Both the position numbers and the translations under genes were made by a program. This document shows, piece after piece, positions 1 through 15,752 of a stretch of 64,000 bases of DNA (position 1 is the stretch's first letter; each line of letters starts with the position of its first letter). Origin of the DNA: an uncultured delta proteobacterium (GTDB lineage: Bacteria; Myxococcota; Myxococcia; Myxococcales; Myxococcaceae); assembly GCA_963771175.1 (NCBI GenBank), contig CAVYSY010000024.1:160001-224000 (forward strand). The letters are read 5' to 3'. The notes under the pieces are model-generated. The model was not told where the DNA came from. It was given only the letters and a program-made list of their open reading frames with translations, and ran no database searches.

Positions 1-209
1 TGGTGAGCCACGACCTGGAAGTAGCCGCTGAGTTCTCCGATCAGATCCTCTTCGTGGACAAGGACGCCCCGGCCATCGTGCTGGGGGACGCGAAGACGGT
101 CTTCTGCCACCCTGCCTTCCGACACAAGTACGGCGATGACTACTGCCCTGTCCACCCTCGCGCCCATCCTCCCCAACCAGGAAATCCGATTGGACCCGCT
201 GCCGATTGA
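1..209 (+). CDS. Metal (Zn/Mn-type) ABC transporter ATP-binding subunit, 3' end only
   Basis: VSHDL H-loop followed by 'FSDQILFVD'; His/Cys-rich tail (CHPAFRH...CPVHPRAH); directly upstream of an ABC-3-type permease. Confidence 0.8.
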   Translation, partial: VSHDLEVAAEFSDQILFVDKDAPAIVLGDAKTVFCHPAFRHKYGDDYCPVHPRAHPPQPGNPIGPAAD

Positions 210-1068
210 AACCTCCTCCTGGTCACAGTTCTGGGACGCCTACGAGCTGTTCCGGGACCCGATGCTGTGCGCCCTCATCGCCGGGTGCGTGCTGGGCTTC
301 CTCAGCATGTACGTGGTGCTGCGGCGCATGGTGTTCGTCAGCGCCGCGGTGACGCAGTCGGCCGGCCTGGGCGTGGCACTGGCCTTCTTCGCGCAGATCC
401 ACCTGGGCTTCCACGTGGAGCCCACGCTGGGCGCCGCGGGCATGGCGCTGCTGGCCACGGTGCTGCTGATGATGGACCCGTCGAGGATGCGACTCACCCG
501 CGAGAGCCTGCTGGGTCTCGCCTACGCCCTCACGGGCGGCGCGGCCATCCTGGTGGGAGACCGCATCTCGCAGGAGGCCCATGACATCCAGGGCATCCTC
601 TTCGGCACGGCGGTGCTGGTGGAGCGGCCCCAGCTCATCGCGGTGGCGGTGGTGGGAGGCGCCACCCTCTTCATCCACCTGTGGTGGTTCCGCGGCCTCA
701 CCTTCGCCAGCTTCGATCGCATTGGAGCCATGGTGCAGGGGCTGCCGGTGCGGCTGCTCGACGCGGTGGTGATGATCTCCATCGGCCTGATGGTGGGCGT
801 GTCGGCGCGAGCCCTGGGCGCGCTGCCGGTGTTCGCCTTCTCCACCCTGTCGGCCATCGCCGCGCTGATGCTGGACCTGCGGCTGCCGTGGACCTTCCTG
901 CTGGCCACCCTGGTCGGAGCCATCTCGGGGCTGGGCGGCTACCTGTTCGCCTACTTCTACAACTTCCCCGTGGGCGGCTCACAGACGGTGCTCGCCAGCG
1001 TGCTGGTGCTGCTGGCGCTGCTCGTGAGGACCGTGCGGCAGCTCGTCACCCACGGAACAGCGCGCTGA
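190..1068 (+). CDS. Metal ABC transporter permease (ZnuB/MntB, ABC-3 family)
   Basis: Many TM helices; 'GFLSMYVVLRRMVFVSAAVTQSAGLGVA' and 'ILFGT' match the ABC-3 pattern. ORF track starts at 136; in-frame TTG at 190 with AGGA upstream is the more likely start. Confidence 0.85.
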   Translation: MDPLPIETSSWSQFWDAYELFRDPMLCALIAGCVLGFLSMYVVLRRMVFVSAAVTQSAGLGVALAFFAQIHLGFHVEPTLGAAGMALLATVLLMMDPSRMRLTRESLLGLAYALTGGAAILVGDRISQEAHDIQGILFGTAVLVERPQLIAVAVVGGATLFIHLWWFRGLTFASFDRIGAMVQGLPVRLLDAVVMISIGLMVGVSARALGALPVFAFSTLSAIAALMLDLRLPWTFLLATLVGAISGLGGYLFAYFYNFPVGGSQTVLASVLVLLALLVRTVRQLVTHGTAR

Positions 1069-2208: not shown

Positions 2209-3087
2209 ATGAGCGACTCCCTGCACCTGGATGACTGGGGCGGTACCGGCCCGGTCCTGCACCTCGCGCACGCCAATGGCTTCCCGCCGGCCACCTACCG
2301 CAGGCTCATCGAGGTCCTGAAGTCGCGCCACCACGTCTTCACCCTCCGGAGCCGCTGCCTCGTGCCGGGGACGGACCCCCGGACGATGCGCGACTGGGAT
2401 GACATGGCCGATGACCTGGCCCAGGCGCTGCGAGCGCGCGGGCTGGAGAACGTGGTGGGAGTGGGCCACAGCATGGGCGGCGTGGCCACCCTGCTCGCCT
2501 CGGTGAAGAACCCGGGGCTCTTCCGGGCCGTGGTGATGTTGGACCCGGTGCTGTTCACGGGCACGCGCGCCCTGGCCATTCAGGCGATGAGCCTGCTCGG
2601 CCTGCGGAGCCGGATTCCCCCCGCGAGCCTCGCCCGGCGCCGCCGCGAGCACTGGAACTCCCGCGAGGAGGCCGCCGCGAGCTACCGCAAGAAGGCCCTC
2701 TTCCGGCACTTCGACGCCGAGTGCTTCCAGGACTACATCACCCACGGCCTCACCGAGGCGCCCGGCGGCGGCTTCCGCCTCACCATCCCCACGGCCTGGG
2801 AGGCCCGCATCTTCGAGACGTCCCCGCACGGCGTCTGGCGGCGGATGCGCTCGGTGACGGTGCCGACGCTCGTGCTGCGCGGGGCGGACTCGGACACGCT
2901 CACCCCGGCCGCCCTGGAGCGCGTCCGGCGTACCCTGCCCGGTGTGCGCACCGAGGAAGTCCCCGGCACCCACCTCTTCCCGCTGGAGCAGCCGGAGGAG
3001 TGCGGACGGCGCATCCTCTCGTTCCTCGGCGCGGAGGGAGAGCGGCCCGCGACGTCCGAGCGAGCGCCTACGCGGCACCGGGCCTGA
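2209..3087 (+). CDS. Alpha/beta-fold hydrolase
   Basis: HANGF oxyanion motif, GHSMGG nucleophile elbow, C-terminal 'GTHLFPLEQP' His. Confidence 0.9.
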   Translation: MSDSLHLDDWGGTGPVLHLAHANGFPPATYRRLIEVLKSRHHVFTLRSRCLVPGTDPRTMRDWDDMADDLAQALRARGLENVVGVGHSMGGVATLLASVKNPGLFRAVVMLDPVLFTGTRALAIQAMSLLGLRSRIPPASLARRRREHWNSREEAAASYRKKALFRHFDAECFQDYITHGLTEAPGGGFRLTIPTAWEARIFETSPHGVWRRMRSVTVPTLVLRGADSDTLTPAALERVRRTLPGVRTEEVPGTHLFPLEQPEECGRRILSFLGAEGERPATSERAPTRHRA

Positions 3088-3099
3088 GCGCGCGGGTGC

Positions 3100-4831
3100 T
3101 CAGCACGAGGCGTTCTCCACGGCCCGCAGGGGAATGACGTTGGCGGGCATCACGCCCCCCACTTCGAGCCGCCCATGGCTCACGAGGAAGGTGCGGGCGC
3201 GGCGGCTCTCCGGCAGGTGCGGATCCGCATCGCCCCAGCACTCCAGGAAGGAGGCGAAGGCATGGGCCGCCTCGGTGAAGGACTCCCGGGCGACGTGGAC
3301 CTCGGCCAGGAGGAACCAGGCATGGCCGCTGCCGGGCCGCTCCTTCACGAGGGCCTCGACCAGTTCCACCGCCTTGTCCTCCCGACCGAAGCGGATCCGC
3401 GCAGCGGGCCAGCGTCTCACGGGCCGAGCGGGAGAAGGCCGGGGGACCCACCGCCCGCAGCCGGCGCTCCAACCGCATGGCCTTGATGAGCGTGGCCTCG
3501 GCGCGAGCGTACTCCCCCTGACGCGACTCCAGCGAGCCCCGCAGCTCGCATGCCGCCAACTCCACCACCCGGGCGACATCTCGCGGGCAGAGCGCGCGGC
3601 CCTCGCCCTTGCGCTCGTCGGCCAGCGGCGGGTGCAGCGCCTCGAGCTCCTCGCACGTCCGCTCCGCCTCCACGAGCTTGCCGGCCTCCAGCGCACGCAA
3701 CCCCCGGGCGTACACCTCCATGGCCGAGAGCAGCGCGCGCTCGGACAGACTCGCCTCCGGGCCCAGCTCCACGCGGAGGTCCACCGCCGCGCGCGAGAAG
3801 CCGAAGCGCAGGTGCAGATTCGAGAGCGCACCGGCCGCGAACACGAGCGCCTGTCCCGAGTGCGGCTTCACCGCCTCCACGCGGGTCCGCAGGCGCCGCG
3901 CCCAGGCCTGGGCCTCGCCATACCGTCCCGCGTCGGCGCATGCGACCGTGAGCAGGCGCAGCGCGAGGCCCGCCACGGGCGCGGCGGACTCGGGCAGGGA
4001 CTCCTGGGAGAGCCAGGCGTCGTCCACGGCCACCGCCGCCTCCAGCACCTCGCACGCCTCGCGGGTGTGGCCGGTGCGCAGCAGCAGCCGGCCGGAGCCG
4101 AGCAGGGCCGTCCCGGCGCGAGGCGCCAGCAGCCGCAGGCGACGTGCGCTCTCCAGTGCCACCTCGGGGCGCCCGCTGCCCACCATCACCTGCACCCAGG
4201 CATGGTGGACGCCCTCGTGGTGCGGGTGCGTGCGCAGCAGGTCGCGCAGCAGCGCCTGCGCATAGGGCTGGCTCATGGTGGGGCGCCCATCCGGCTCGTA
4301 CCCCTCCGAGAGGAAACCCGCGAGCAGCAGGCGCGCCTCGGCGTCCTCGGGGAAGCGGTCGATGAGCGCCTCCATCTCACGCATGAAACCGTGGCGACCG
4401 TTGGCCGGGCCCTTGTCGGCCAGGAAGGTGGCCGCGACGATGTAGCGCTGCTCGGCATCCGTCACGCCCTCGCTGAGCGCGAGCGCCCGGTGGATGGTCT
4501 CCGCCCGAGCCGTCGCGTAGCGCGCCCCGGCCCCCCGCGTCAGGGCCAGGCCCCAGTACGCCATGGCGAGCCCCGGATCCAACCGCGCCGCCTCCGCGAA
4601 GGAGCGCCGCGCCTCGGGTCCCCACCCGAGGTGCAGCAGACGCAGCCCCTGGTCGAAGTACGCCTGGGCCAGGGGCACCTGGGTGCTCACCCGCAGGTGC
4701 GCGCGTCCCAGCCCCTCGCGCAGCGGAGGCGTGGGCAGCTCCGCGTCCGGGACGTCGTCCCAGGGACCGGCGGGGAAGAGGGAGGGCTCCTCGGCTCGAA
4801 GGTGTCGCACCAGCATGGTGACCTCACTCAC
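3100..4831 (-). CDS. Tetratricopeptide-repeat protein (one frameshift near 3400)
   Basis: 'AQAYFDQGLRLLH..EARRSFAEAARLDPGLAMAYWGLA' and further TPR-like helices; C-terminal TPRs continue in the 3100..3831 frame. Confidence 0.75.
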
Positions 4832-5442
4832 GCCCCGACGAGCGGGGCAAACGCTTCATCCACAACGGGCTGCTCCAGCGCGGCCACACGCTCGGCCAGC
4901 CGCCTCCACTCCGCCGCCAACAGCTCCACGGGGACCGGCGAGGCCTTGCGTCGTGCCGCGAGGCACTCGTGCCGCCAGCCGGAGCCCGTCGACTCCACGA
5001 CCCACTCCTCGTACCCGGCCAACCAGCCGGCCAGCGCCACCACCGCGACGCGCGCGGCCTGGTGCTCGCACGGGGTGGCCGGCTCGCGCAGGGCACCGCC
5101 GAGCCCCGACGCATGGAAGACGGGCCACGCCACCCGGGCCTCGTCCACCAGGGCCGGGGTGAAGCCGTCACGCGGGACGTAGACGGCCTCGCCGCACACT
5201 CGGCACAGCGCCCCGAACCCCCACAGCGTGAAGGCCCCTCCCCCGGGCAGCACGCCCGAGTAGGCGCTGGTGCCCTGCTGTCCCGCGGGAATCCGCTCGC
5301 GGGAGAGACCACGGCGCAGCAGCAGGTTGCCCTCGTGGGAGACATCGCGACCGATGCACCACATGGACACATCGAACAGCCGCTCGCCCTCGCGTCGCAT
5401 GTCCAGCGGGAGGGCCTGGGGAAGGGAGGAGCCCATCACCAT
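4828..5442 (-). CDS. Hypothetical protein
   Basis: AGGAG RBS before ATG 5442; protein-like composition (MWCIGRDV..GNLL, LWGFG); stop overlaps the TPR gene start (GTGA). Confidence 0.65.
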   Translation of the reverse strand: MVMGSSLPQALPLDMRREGERLFDVSMWCIGRDVSHEGNLLLRRGLSRERIPAGQQGTSAYSGVLPGGGAFTLWGFGALCRVCGEAVYVPRDGFTPALVDEARVAWPVFHASGLGGALREPATPCEHQAARVAVVALAGWLAGYEEWVVESTGSGWRHECLAARRKASPVPVELLAAEWRRLAERVAALEQPVVDEAFAPLVGA

Positions 5443-5477
5443 CGTCGTCTCCTGTTCTTTGAATCGGGTGGGGACAG

Positions 5478-5511
5478 CGGAGCGGGGGGCGGCCAGCACT
5501 CCCCCGCTCCG
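5478..5511 (-). other. Strong intergenic stem-loop (no U-tract)
   Basis: CGGAGCGGGGG (5478-5488) pairs with CCCCCGCTCCG (5501-5511), just downstream of the lipoprotein stop. Confidence 0.5.
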
Positions 5512-5531: not shown

Positions 5532-6014
5532 TCAGTCCGCGTGCGCTTCGTCGTGCGCCATCTCCTCGATGACGAGCGAGACGCTGGCCTGCGAGGTGGG
5601 GCCGAAGGTCAGGGTGTACGTGCCCACCTGCAGCGGCACCACGTGGCGGCCCTTGACCTCACTGCACTCCTCCGAGCGCGTCGCGGTCTCCTCGAACGTC
5701 ACCTCCGCACCGGCGGAGCTGGCGACCTTCACGGGCACGTCCGCGCCAAGGAAGAGGACGTAGTCGGTGGCCTCGGACACGGCGAACGACACCGAGCCGA
5801 CATTGCCCCCGGTGCCCGCCGGCAGCGTGATGTCGTAGCGCTTGTGGTCGTTGCTCACGGCGGGCGCGCCGCTCGTCGAGGCCGTCGCGGTCACGGCGGC
5901 GCCGGGGCCCTCCTGGAGGTGCTCGCAACCCTCGACATCGGCAACGTTGGTATCGCCGCAGGCAATGAGCAGCGCGCTCGACAGCAGGCAGGCGGACAGC
6001 AGCTTCTTGGTCAT
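5532..6014 (-). CDS. Lipoprotein of unknown function, possibly metal-binding
   Basis: MTKKLLSACLLSSALLIAC lipobox; GGAG RBS; CEH motif, NDH, second Cys, His-acidic tail EEMAHDEAHAD. Confidence 0.8.
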   Translation of the reverse strand: MTKKLLSACLLSSALLIACGDTNVADVEGCEHLQEGPGAAVTATASTSGAPAVSNDHKRYDITLPAGTGGNVGSVSFAVSEATDYVLFLGADVPVKVASSAGAEVTFEETATRSEECSEVKGRHVVPLQVGTYTLTFGPTSQASVSLVIEEMAHDEAHAD

Positions 6015-6319
6015 GGCGTGTGACTCCAGATGTGGACAACAGGGTGGTGCTGCGAAGCCCTCGCGCTCCCGTCCCGAGAACGGACAAGGACGCCGGAGCG
6101 AGAGGGAAGGTGTGCGCGGGCGCACGGCGGGAGGGTATCGCGCTCGCGCACCGGGGCCCGGGAATCGGAGCTCCGGGTGCGTGCACGGCCGCGGACCAGG
6201 CACCTCACGTGAGGCGCGGGGACACGTCCGGATGCACGGAGGGAGTCTCCGCGGCCTGAGTGCGCCAGGGCGATGCGTGGAAGGTGCAGGAGCTCTGGCC
6301 CGACCCTCCCGGGTCCCGA

Positions 6320-6731
6320 TCAGGCCCGCGGCGGTGAGGACTTGGGTGCCATGTGGAGCCACGCCACCGGAGGCTCCCAGGCCTCGCTGTCGGCCTCCAG
6401 CACGGACCCCGACGGGACCGGTGCTTCCAGCGACAGCATCACTCCGACGGGCGGCGGCGCCACCCGGCGGAGGAAGACGTGCGCGCAGTGCGCATCCGCG
6501 CCGTGCGGCACGGAAGCCATGGCATCCGCGCGCGTGAGGCGCTCGTCCGAGAAGGACGCACGCCACCTGCACCGGCGCGTCACCCGGCCCGACCTCGGCC
6601 TCGTGCAGCAGGTCGCCGTGCTCGACGCACGTGCCGTGCCGCACGAGGAAGAAGTGCGCCGCGCTTCCCAGGTACGCCAGCGCGCAGAGCAGCACCAGCG
6701 GCAGCGCCAGCAGGCGGGACCGTCGGGGCAT
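6320..6731 (-). CDS. Small His/Cys-rich membrane-anchored protein ending APKSSPPRA (DUF2946-like leader candidate; apparent frameshift near 6560)
   Basis: N-terminal hydrophobic helix plus H-x5-H-x2-C-x2-HG-x3-H in one frame; HGADAHCAH and LHMAPKSSPPRA* in the 6320..6583 frame. Confidence 0.6.
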
Positions 6732-6762
6732 CACTGACTCTGGGCGGCTCTGGCGGCTCACG

Positions 6763-6777
6763 GGAAACACGGTTTCA
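6763..6777. promoter_or_regulatory. Palindromic operator candidate (Fur/Zur-like geometry)
   Basis: GAAAC-ACG-GTTTC perfect 5-3-5 palindrome, between the predicted promoter and ATG 6731. Confidence 0.4.
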
Positions 6778-6801
6778 ACGAAAATACAGGTATGCCCCTG
6801 C

Positions 6802-6830
6802 GTTGTACGCGAGGGCGCCCGCACGCGCAA
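6802..6830 (-). promoter_or_regulatory. Sigma70-type promoter for the 6731-3100 operon
   Basis: Minus strand TTGCGC-17 bp-TACAAC. Confidence 0.45.
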
Positions 6831-6869
6831 GCAGTAGTGACACGCGGAAGCACCTGCAATCGAGTTACA

Positions 6870-8541
6870 TCAGACCGCGTACCCCATGGCGCCCGCCTTC
6901 ACCGGCGCCTCGGGGTCGAGCATCACGTTGACGCAGGCCACGGTGCCGCTGGCCACCGCGCGCTCGAGCGCCGGGACGAATCTGCGCGGGCTCGGTGACG
7001 AGCTCGCCGTGGCCGCCCAGGGCCTCGACCACCTTGTCGTAGCGGGTGGGCGCGAGCAGCGTGCGCCGGGCGACTTGTCCTCGCCGAACATGCTGCACCT
7101 GCGGAAGGCGGATCTGCCCCCAGGCGGCGTCGTTGCCCACCACGCACACCATGGGCAGCTTGAAGCGCAGCGCCGTCTCGAAGTCCATGCCGTTGAGGCC
7201 GAACGAGCCGTCGCCCTGGATGATCCAGATGCGTGCGCTCGGGGTGCAGCACCTTCGAGGCGATGGCGAACGGCGCGCCCACGCCCAGGCACCCGAGCGG
7301 CCCCGGATCGAGCCAGCGGCCCGGCTTGCGCAGCTCGATCACCTTGGCCGCCATGGCCACCCAGTTGCCGCCGTCCGCGATGAACACCGGATCCTGCCCC
7401 GCCGCGTTGGCCACGTCCGACATCTCCTTGGCCAGCCGGTAGTGGTGGATGGGCACGCTGTCGTCCTCGTCCACTGCCTCGAGGTCGCTTGCAGCTTCTT
7501 CTGCTCGCGGCCGCGCAGCTGCGCGAGGAACGCGTCCCGCTTCGCCCGGGGCGCCGCGTCCGCGAAGGCGGTCGAGCGCGCTGTAGCTGTCGCGCGATGA
7601 TGCCCACGTCCACCGCGCGGTTGCGCCCGATCTCGGTCGGGTCGATGTCCACCTGGACGATCTTCGACTCGGCGCTGAAGGTGGGCTCGGCGCCGTAGTT
7701 GAGCCGGAAGTCGAACGGGCGTGCCGATGACGAACACCACGTCCGCGCCGCTGAGCGCCTCCTTGCGCGTGTGCTGGAAGAAGAGCGGGTGGCTCGCCGG
7801 CAGGCAGCCGCGGCCCGCGCCGTTGAGGTACACGGGCATCTGCGCCGTCTCGCAGAAGCGCCGCAGCGCGTCCCACGGCCCCGTCCCAGTACACCGACGA
7901 GCCGGCGATGACGGCGGGGCGCTCGGCGGACTTGAGCAGCGCCATGCGCCTCGTCCACCTTGCGCGGATCCGGCGCCTGCGCGCGCGTCCGTGCGGTAGC
8001 TCGCGGGCAGCTGCAGCGCCGGCCTCGTCCGCGCGCGTTGCAGAGCACGTCCCAGGCCAGCTCCAGGAACACCGGCCCCGGCCGCCCGGAGAGCGCCACC
8101 CGGAAGGCCTTGGCCAGGTAGGCGGGCACCAGCTCCGGCGTGGGGACGCGGTCCGACCACTTGGTGATGCGGTGGAAGAGGTCCACCTGCTCCATCTCCT
8201 GCAGCGAGCCGCGGCTCTGGTTGAAGATGGGCGCCGCGCCGCCCAGGAGGATCATCGGCGAGCTGGCCGCGTAGGCGTTGGCCACGCCGGTGAGCGCGTC
8301 GGTCACGCCCGGGCCCGGCCGTCACCACCGCCACGCCCACCCCGCGCGTCACCCGGGCGTAGGCGTCCGCCGCGTGCGCGGCCGCCTGCTCGTGGCGCGT
8401 GTCGATGACCTGGATGCCCTCCTCCACGCAGCCCGCGTAGATGGGGGCCACGTGCAGGCCCGAGAGGGTGAAGATGTGCCGGACGCCCTCCTTCTTGAGC
8501 ATCCGCGCGACGAGCTGCCCGCCGGTGACCATGTCGCCCAT
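6870..8541 (-). CDS. Thiamine pyrophosphate-dependent enzyme (acetolactate synthase / 2-hydroxyacyl-CoA lyase-like); multiple frameshifts
   Basis: TGGQLVARML, RHEQAAAHAADAYAR, VTAGPG, LQEMEQ, GRPGPV, PGPLGCLGVG, GDGSF...VGNDAAWG motifs spread across frames. Confidence 0.85.

Positions 8542-12971: not shown

Positions 12972-15752
<2,781 letters not shown>

Follow-up and report, generated by a model that had tools for sequence, protein, structure and literature searches.

The described systems closest to the gene reported here are the cis-acting leaders CruR and CutF. CruR of Bordetella pertussis (Bp2923) is described as a DUF2946 (PF11162) protein of ~145 aa with RAPP and CXXC motifs (Roy et al. 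2022, PMC9426467), in which the distance from the metal motif to the PP is fixed at 45 residues and for which a spacer of 162 bp behind the gene, a C>G bubble and Rho-dependent termination are also reported (PMC9426467). CutF of Rhodobacter capsulatus is reported to combine PPP and CxxxC motifs with a stem-loop over the ribosome binding site (RBS) of the next gene (bioRxiv 2022.11.11.516240 / PMC9973294; bioRxiv 2025.02.05.636593), and CutF-like clusters with Cys, His or both, as well as non-copper contexts, have already been described by Ozturk et al. Leaders of the DUF2946 type are not limited to copper, for the czr Zn/Cd efflux genes of Caulobacter are preceded by a DUF2946 gene that has a Zur box (PMC4176598). 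A core of the form RSPP is reported as partially arrest-permissive in mutants of ApdA/ApdP (PMC12992588). Here we describe a small open reading frame (ORF) on the minus strand of a 64,000-nucleotide stretch of myxobacterial DNA (the window hereafter; an uncultured delta proteobacterium placed in the Myxococcaceae, assembly GCA_963771175.1, contig CAVYSY010000024.1, positions 160,001 to 224,000), which encodes a small exported His/Cys-rich protein ending in an APKxSPP motif. Our best explanation, which we hold with about even confidence, is that this protein acts as a CruR/CutF-like, cis-acting and metal-sensing leader for the genes behind it.

A first-pass annotation of the window had proposed that two frames make up a single protein of ~137 aa with an N-terminal export or transmembrane segment, two His/Cys clusters and a C-terminal proline motif. 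Frame 1, read from ATG 6731, begins MPRRSRLLALPLVLLCALAYLGSAAHFFLVRHGTCVEHGDLLH (also given as MPRRSRLLALPLVLLCALAYLGSAAHFFLVRHGTCVEHGDLLHEAEVGPGDAPVQVA) and runs to VQVA, and the second frame contains HGADAHCAHVFLRR and ends in WLHMAPKSSPPRA (also given as SFSDERLTRADAMASVPHGADAHCAHVFLRRVAPPPVGVMLSLEAPVPSGSVLEADSEAWEPPVAWLHMAPKSSPPRA) at the stop codon 6322-6320. Intact orthologs span both frames, which bears out the joining, and P0002, the intact homolog that comes closest (136 aa; Archangium sp.), is colinear across them with no break; the window frames were left unjoined and this type of intact ortholog was used as a stand-in for the analyses. The H-x5-H-x2-C-x2-HG-x3-H cluster, the HCAH site and the C-terminal string are each found in the window as originally described, with APKSSPP at 6349-6329 followed by Arg-Ala and the stop. 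A GTG codon at 6761, which lies 10 codons 5' of the ATG, is likely the true start, as it falls inside a conserved CGTGAGCC block and coincides with the start of most orthologs.

In order to define the family we used the first 60 residues as a query and obtained 51 proteins at E≤0.01 among 74 candidates (E down to 7e-25), which are 134-160 aa long except for one partial entry and which, where named, are all 'hypothetical protein' of Archangium/Myxococcaceae. A profile of 50 homologs run against 1.84 billion representative proteins returned 1407 matches at E≤0.001, 122 at E≤1e-10 and 10 at E≤1e-30; those listed are full-length matches to proteins of ~130-150 aa, with just 3 of the 150 listed exceeding 200 aa. 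Taken with the 36 syntenic loci described below, the 51 homologs lie far beyond chance. The window's two ORF pieces match no family in Pfam or NCBIfam, and among 150 family members no NCBIfam family is hit by more than one and no Pfam family other than DUF2946 by more than two. One metagenomic member, P0117 (310 aa), carries an in-frame N-terminal MerC mercury-transporter domain (E=1.8e-13), which could be a true fusion or a merged gene call.

The small ORF is genuine, conserved and translated, and its product has two conserved His/Cys clusters behind an N-terminus of Sec type. Mean column identity across 150 diverse members is 14%, and conservation of 90% or more, up to invariance, is confined to 14 positions, namely H26, V30, H32, C35, H38, G39, H81, C82, A128, P129, K130, S132, P133 and P134. 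In cluster 1, H26, H32, C35, H38 and G39 are invariant in the 50 close homologs and at least 90% conserved in the 150 diverse members; in cluster 2, H76, H81, C82, R88 and R89 are invariant in the close homologs, with C82 invariant and H81 at least 90% conserved in the wider set. The C-terminal PP motif noted in the first-pass annotation is conserved in homologs, in 37 of 37 syntenic sequences and in 197 of 200 family proteins in the form PK.SPP (more fully APK[SANT..]SPP), the three exceptions being a partial entry, one protein ending ...SPT and one with APTTSPP. The tail after PP is 1-6 residues long in 194 of these 197 and 1-2 residues in 147. Pattern matching located every motif in 180 proteins, and in 170 of these the Cys of HC lies 50-53 residues from the first Pro of PP (standard deviation, SD, 1.7), the other linker measuring 37-59 residues (SD 3.0); the corresponding SDs for 122 distant members are 2.1 and 3.5. 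In 225 members a hydrophobic stretch (mean hydropathy 1.66) precedes the invariant first His, with an N-terminal net charge of at least +1 in all of them, A/S/G/T at position -1 relative to this His in 170 and S/G/A/T at position -3 in 202. This would be the anatomy of a Sec signal peptide or a signal anchor, the cleaved and anchored forms looking alike here, and together with a helix predicted by AlphaFold2 it upholds the signal or transmembrane segment that had been proposed.

Codon usage at the motif sets it apart from the rest of the ORF. The residues A, P, K, S, P and P are invariant in all 37 aligned sequences and are each encoded by 2-4 synonymous codons, which shows that selection acts on the peptide. 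The Ser before PP is TCT in 23, TCA in 13 and TCG in 1 of these sequences, so that 36 of 37 use the rare TCT or TCA; together these two make up 7.2% of Ser codons among 131,994 reference codons from the same loci, where G+C at third codon positions is 0.888 as against 0.881 in the bodies of the orthologous small ORFs. Over 128 codon columns in 35 orthologs the share of codons ending in A or T has a mean of 0.127, and the motif Ser column is the top outlier at 0.97, followed by a Pro column of the linker (0.69) and by the second Pro of the motif (0.60), which is CCT or CCA in 21 of 37 sequences compared with 15.8% in the reference. Two different rare Ser codons are in use while the three common ones are avoided; the window carries TCA (6337-6335).

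Synteny places the small ORF at the head of a variable set of genes. The 36 loci that encode it come from Archangium, Cystobacter, Vitiosangium, Hyalangium, Myxococcus, Corallococcus, Pyxidicoccus, Citreicoccus and other Myxococcaceae, and all 36 proteins end in APK[S/A]SPP, two further residues and a stop. In the window it is the first of four same-strand genes, as the gene order confirms, followed by genes for a lipoprotein, a 223-aa protein and a tetratricopeptide repeat (TPR) protein. A fifth same-strand gene upstream, encoding a thiamine pyrophosphate (TPP) enzyme (8541..6870), is set apart from it by a conserved promoter-like element. In 34 of 35 sequences the region 5' of the small ORF has a match to the pattern TTGNNN-N16-18-TANANN, which invariably takes the form TTGC or TTGA with a 17-nt spacer; the sole miss is L029, in which the match begins inside the ORF. 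The 35 spacers that lead from the small ORF to the following lipoprotein gene are all without such a match. A stringent sigma-70 consensus scan of 5900..6950 gave no promoter-like site, and the element is defined by the looser pattern and by its conservation. Because it is kept although the TPP-enzyme gene is found in only 19 of the 36 loci, the small ORF heads a unit of its own, in agreement with its proposed first position; we infer that the element serves as a promoter and that the small ORF is co-transcribed with the genes behind it. One weak terminator-like site (6801..6786; 1 found, 0.4 expected) overlaps the proposed 5' untranslated region (UTR).

Behind the small ORF the lipoprotein gene is present in 34 of 36 loci (missing in L031 and L033, where the TPR gene follows directly at about 200 and 320 nt), the 223-aa ORF in 31 (missing in L006, L029, L030, L031 and L033) and the TPR gene in 33 (missing in L029 and L030, where the lipoprotein gene stands alone after the small ORF; L036 ends too early). 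In several loci two additional genes stand between those for the lipoprotein and the 223-aa protein. What is constant is the small ORF in first place; the cargo behind it varies. Examples of the additional genes, which are absent from the window and from L001, lie at L004 9199-9714 and 9782-10165 and at L016 9223-9639, and they encode a repeat lipoprotein rich in His, Glu and Met and a small, basic protein of ~130 aa. Just 5' of the GTG start in the window there is also a perfect inverted repeat, GAAAC-CGT-GTTTC (6764-6776, minus strand), whose conservation is confined to the Archangium group and which may serve as an operator or form a hairpin in the 5' UTR.

The spacer between the small ORF and the lipoprotein gene is 257-366 nt long in 35 sequences, with C exceeding G in all 35 and a mean column identity of 42%. 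Its skew, (C-G)/(C+G), averages +0.06 in the first half (positive in 30 of 35) and +0.13 in the second half (positive in 35 of 35). In the window the spacer skew is +0.149, an absolute skew of at least 0.15 being reached by 7.0% of 300-nt windows of the 64 kb, and the tract of C over G extends from ~70 nt before the small-ORF stop to the lipoprotein start. The promoter and terminator scan of 5900..6950 found no terminator-like site in the spacer, and Rfam gave no family over the same interval, with one chance-level match (E=0.38). To judge from its sequence, the spacer does not look like a SecM/CutF stem-loop within reach of a paused ribosome and resembles the CruR case; because it is long, tolerant of insertions, richer in C than in G and without a conserved fold that hides the Shine-Dalgarno sequence, we favour CruR-style Rho control over RBS unmasking. 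Spacers of several Archangium loci (for example L005, L006, L009 and L011) carry 1-2 copies of a ~40-nt inverted-repeat element (CCCTCTCCC...GGGAGAGGG then GGGGTGAGGGT) just after the small-ORF stop; the window is without it.

The mechanism we envisage would begin with a ribosome that pauses as it decodes Ser-Pro-Pro, the Ser codon being a rare one in this ortholog group. The only signs of such a pause are indirect, namely the invariance of the peptide, the rare-codon bias on Ser-Pro and the place of the motif beside the stop. At the pause the HC-x-H cluster, 50-53 residues upstream, would have just left the exit tunnel and cluster 1 would already be at the outer face of the membrane, so positioned that metal bound by the nascent chain could lengthen or relieve the pause. 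The pause would then set the expression of the downstream genes, the favoured route being CruR-style control of Rho-dependent termination rather than CutF/SecM-style unmasking of an RBS. More tentatively, and at somewhat less than even confidence, the family may represent a new class of metal-sensing arrest leader, widespread in Myxococcota, that is defined by an APKxSPP core, a rare Ser codon, a split His/Cys sensor and a 50-53-residue ruler, and that gates Znu-type importers and envelope proteins, probably through Rho attenuation in the C-rich spacer.

The first-pass annotation had also suggested a role in metal sensing, and the gene does have a link to metal. A profile search of the locus DNA gave one further member, a paralog in L030 (Citreicoccus inhibens) on the other strand (15616..15188), which is 142 aa long, ends in ...APKASPPVRSLSA and matches with E=3.9e-12. 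The next gene follows 81 nt on, on the same strand, and the paralog heads an operon (15616-10281, minus strand) that encodes, in order, a secreted protein of 452 aa without an assigned family, a binding protein of the ZnuA family (PF01297, E=3.6e-46), a lipoprotein, an ABC ATPase (AztA-like, E=3.8e-50) and an ABC-3 permease (PF00950, E=1.8e-35). At the syntenic locus the conserved E-G-C-E-H-L motif of the lipoprotein, with its second Cys and a His-rich tail, suggests metal binding; neither this lipoprotein nor the 223-aa ORF matches a family in Pfam or NCBIfam. The ABC-3 permease in the window is the last gene of a metal importer operon of the kind seen in L030, which converges on the locus and whose head lies beyond the window. 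Because the paralog sits in a Znu-type operon, the metal sensed would more likely be Zn or Mn than Cu; the original suggestion of Zn, Ni or Co rather than Cu would likewise fit the Znu-type context of this one paralog. A promoter-like site of the form TTGACA-N17-TAGAGC is found 5' of the L030 paralog.

The main rival is that the small ORF encodes a stable, trans-acting envelope protein that binds metal through its His and Cys residues, whether as a metallochaperone, an accessory subunit or a sensor, and works with the lipoprotein or a Znu-type transporter, the APKxSPP ending being a tag for partner binding, protection from degradation or processing and not a stall site. We consider this possible and clearly less probable than the leader. 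Its six near-invariant metal-ligand residues, its constant co-occurrence with envelope proteins and a probable signal-peptidase site, cleavage at which would make the invariant His the mature N-terminus, all sit well with such a protein, and a first place in an operon is normal for a structural gene too. AlphaFold2, run with a 150-sequence alignment, predicts a helix at residues 4-29 (predicted local distance difference test, pLDDT, 94-97), a beta-hairpin at 32-43 and a helix at 80-88, with coil elsewhere including the C-terminal part; the hairpin and helix, together with pLDDT of 82-84 across residues 101-120, count in favour of a stable protein. The chain is, however, mostly variable coil, with a mean pLDDT of 73.5 and a predicted template modelling score (pTM) of 0.39, and no solved structure was matched either by a sequence profile search of the PDB with the family alignment (0 matches at E≤10) or by a fold search of the PDB with the small-protein model (0 matches at E≤0.001). 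The small ORF keeps its first place although the genes behind it change, the invariant motif lies 1-6 residues from the stop, the rare-codon bias falls exactly on the Ser-Pro of the motif, and a purely structural role would leave the long C-rich spacer unexplained.

Several observations weigh against a leader and temper our confidence in it. Ribosome stalling is purely our inference from sequence, and KxSPP is not a demonstrated arrest motif, its basic residue standing at -3 and not at -2 as in RAPP or RSPP. The pLDDT of 82-84 at residues 101-120 of the model hints at a folded state as of a stable protein. The single paralog seen, that of L030, uses common codons at the motif, and the 37 sequences behind the codon counts are related, so that these counts are not independent. 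Across 35 sequences RNAalifold found no consensus pairs in the 128 nt around the lipoprotein start, and folds of the individual sequences gave no consistent partner linking the stall site to the Shine-Dalgarno sequence. The lipoprotein directly downstream has no family assigned and matches generic beta-sandwich folds only: its model (pLDDT 85.7, pTM 0.78; a helix and a beta-sandwich) returned collagen-binding/PPC, GOLD and CUB folds at a query-normalised TM of ~0.5 in the PDB fold search. Finally, DUF2946 is matched by just one of 50 close homologs (E=5.6), and no family member reaches its gathering score (19.3 bits at best against 23.7).

With regard to DUF2946, to which the first-pass annotation had likened the protein, membership is not established. 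The window's two pieces have no match at E≤1, and 25 of the 150 diverse members match at E≤10, the best with E=0.0021 and 19.3 bits; 9 of 139 members match at E≤0.05, all under the cut-off, and several of these cover almost the entire profile (positions 2-117 of 117 in one case). In a feature search of the Atlas, clusters of Myxococcota came out on top (0.97-0.98), and 7 of 30 hits fall in a set led by a Pseudomonadota cluster (score 0.93) in which 15% of members carry DUF2946. There is no CXXC among the conserved ligands (H26, H32, C35, H38, H81, C82), and the motif reads APK[SANT..]SPP and not RAPP, its position near the stop being as in that group. This points to remote kinship between the two families, or to convergence on one architecture, rather than to membership.

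A second rival keeps the pause and changes its outcome, with the paused ribosome melting an mRNA stem that hides the RBS of the lipoprotein gene, as in CutF or SecM. CutF provides a precedent (bioRxiv 2025.02.05.636593, 2022.11.11.516240), and a strongly conserved GGAG Shine-Dalgarno sequence lies 8-10 nt before the lipoprotein ATG; the Ala-Pro codons of the motif are its pairing partner in 3 of 35 minimum-energy folds. The stall site is, however, 257-366 nt away from that sequence, the Archangium spacers contain inserted repeats, the pairing partners vary by locus with a GGAG paired probability of 0.28-1.00, near the ~0.64 background, and RNAalifold gives no consensus structure. Because the folds show no consistent Shine-Dalgarno partner we have downgraded the stem-loop model, which we now regard as improbable.

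The last rival concerns the frameshift that divides the ORF in the window. Alignment of the DNA to L001 and L002 locates one surplus base at ~6564. The TPP-enzyme gene (acetolactate-synthase-like, 6870-8541, minus strand) is spread over three frames and has 14 insertions of 1-2 nt relative to its L002 ortholog, a density far above that of its neighbours (1, 1 and 0), and a 1-nt insertion near 3402 moves the C-terminal part of the TPR gene into another frame; in the same comparison the lipoprotein gene has no insertions. Because of these other 1-2 nt insertions in the TPP and TPR genes, the small-ORF frameshift is probably an assembly artefact. That the +1 insertion splitting the ORF in the window sequence as it stands is real, making the gene a dead pseudogene without function in this organism, is very unlikely, given that all such differences in the window are 1-2 nt insertions, also in conserved genes and typical of read or assembly error, and that each half is ~93% identical to the ortholog in DNA with the motif intact. 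Annotation pipelines will miss or split such a gene in error-prone assemblies like this one. Further length differences in the TPR gene are seen near 3180 and 3080-3100 and vary with the ortholog compared. In Cystobacter fuscus strain NCWS (L012 9640-11967) matches to the 223-aa ORF and the TPR gene are broken up into several frame-shifted pieces, which suggests that this assembly also carries indel errors.

The coordinates of the locus and of the other features discussed are collected in Table 1. Matches of the lipoprotein in the Atlas are to Myxococcota 'putative lipoprotein' clusters only. Conserved TGGCAC-like bases near its start were considered as a sigma-54 site and rejected, the spacing not fitting by eye. 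The 223-aa ORF has conserved WC, CxxC, CEH and HEC motifs and no signal peptide, and its stop overlaps the start of the TPR gene. A reading of the locus in terms of a precursor of ribosomally synthesised and post-translationally modified peptides was also set aside, the match concerned being a trivial TPR-repeat match to TIGR04510 with 20 bits against a cut-off of 400.

Table 1 Features of the small-ORF locus and its surroundings, in window coordinates
Feature	Position	Strand	Details
Small ORF	6320..6761	-	GTG 6761 (likely) or ATG 6731 to TGA 6322-6320; ~147 (or 137) aa read through
Promoter-like element TTGCGC-N17-TACAAC (putative)	6802..6830	-	~40 nt 5' of the GTG start; loose pattern and alignment
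Hydrophobic signal/anchor segment (LLALPLVLLCALAYLGSAA...)	6645..6713	-	Follows an Arg-rich N-terminus; AlphaFold2 helix and hydropathy
His/Cys cluster 1, H-x5-H-x2-C-x2-HG-x3-H	6603..6656	-	Conservation in homologs
Extra base (frameshift) relative to orthologs	6563..6565	-	DNA alignment with orthologs L001 and L002
His/Cys cluster 2, HGADAHCAH then FLRR	6464..6505	-	Conservation in homologs
C-terminal block EPxVxxLxxAPKSSPP	6329..6376	-	Conserved
C-rich, G-poor spacer, 305 nt	6015..6319	-	Between small ORF and lipoprotein gene
Lipoprotein gene, 160 aa	5532..6014	-	Lipobox LIAC, EGCEHL motif, His-rich C-terminal tail
223-aa ORF (likely start near 5436)	4828..5499	-	Conserved Cys/His, syntenic
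TPR-repeat protein, 587-aa ORF	3068..4831	-	Domain match and synteny
ABC-3 metal-transporter permease	136..1068	+	PF00950, E=6.6e-37

If the proposed leader function is correct, nascent-chain metal sensing of the CruR/CutF kind would reach another phylum, with His-rich ligands and a different proline core, and would probably extend to the uptake of zinc or manganese. A family of ~1400 sequence clusters that lacks a Pfam or NCBIfam model would at the same time gain a name and a function open to testing. The position-specific rare Ser codon offers a handle here, as synonymous recoding could separate translation kinetics from protein function.

In the literature searched we found no mention of an APKxSPP-type motif or of CutF-like proteins in Myxococcota, and no relevant paper on arrest peptides in Myxococcus, and the text and supplements covered of the CruR and CutF papers contain no Myxococc*, the full list of 5,334 CutF-like proteins lying outside this check. 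Compared with the arrest peptides ApdA, ApdP and SecM as described, the myxobacterial family shares a C-terminal x-x-Pro-Pro core in a small secretory or membrane protein encoded 5' of regulated genes, and differs in having Lys at -3 and no Arg at -2 and in downstream genes that are not Sec/YidC components. It departs from the published account of CruR in its ligands (H-x5-H-x2-C-x2-HG and HC-x-H, not CXXC), in its motif (APKxSPP, not RAPP), in matching the Pfam model below threshold only, in its downstream genes, in the rare Ser and Pro codons of the motif where CruR uses frequent codons for RAPP, and in its phylum, Myxococcota, the distribution given in the CruR paper being Proteobacteria with a few Planctomycetes, Firmicutes and Deinococcus (PMC9426467). 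With CruR it has in common an export-type N-terminus, a similar size (~145 aa in CruR), a predicted poor structure, a ligand motif at a fixed distance from a C-terminal xxPP (45 residues in CruR, 50-53 here), a PP motif near the end (3 residues in CruR, mostly 1-2 here), a place at the head of an operon (for metal acquisition in CruR, and for the L030 paralog a ZnuA/ABC-3 importer operon), and a spacer that is long (162 bp in CruR and 257-366 nt in this family) with C exceeding G over the 3' end of the ORF and the spacer. In relation to the available descriptions of CutF, the family differs in its SPP core, in its long spacer and in that no conserved stem was found in it. It resembles CutF in its predicted Sec-type signal segment, its Cys/His site and a proline motif among the last 15 residues (present in 197 of 200 proteins, with the next gene at 257-366 nt in 35 of 35 sequences with the lipoprotein gene), in the two residues that separate this motif from the stop (CutF ends in GPPPRL), and in its placement 5' of genes for envelope proteins that may handle metal.

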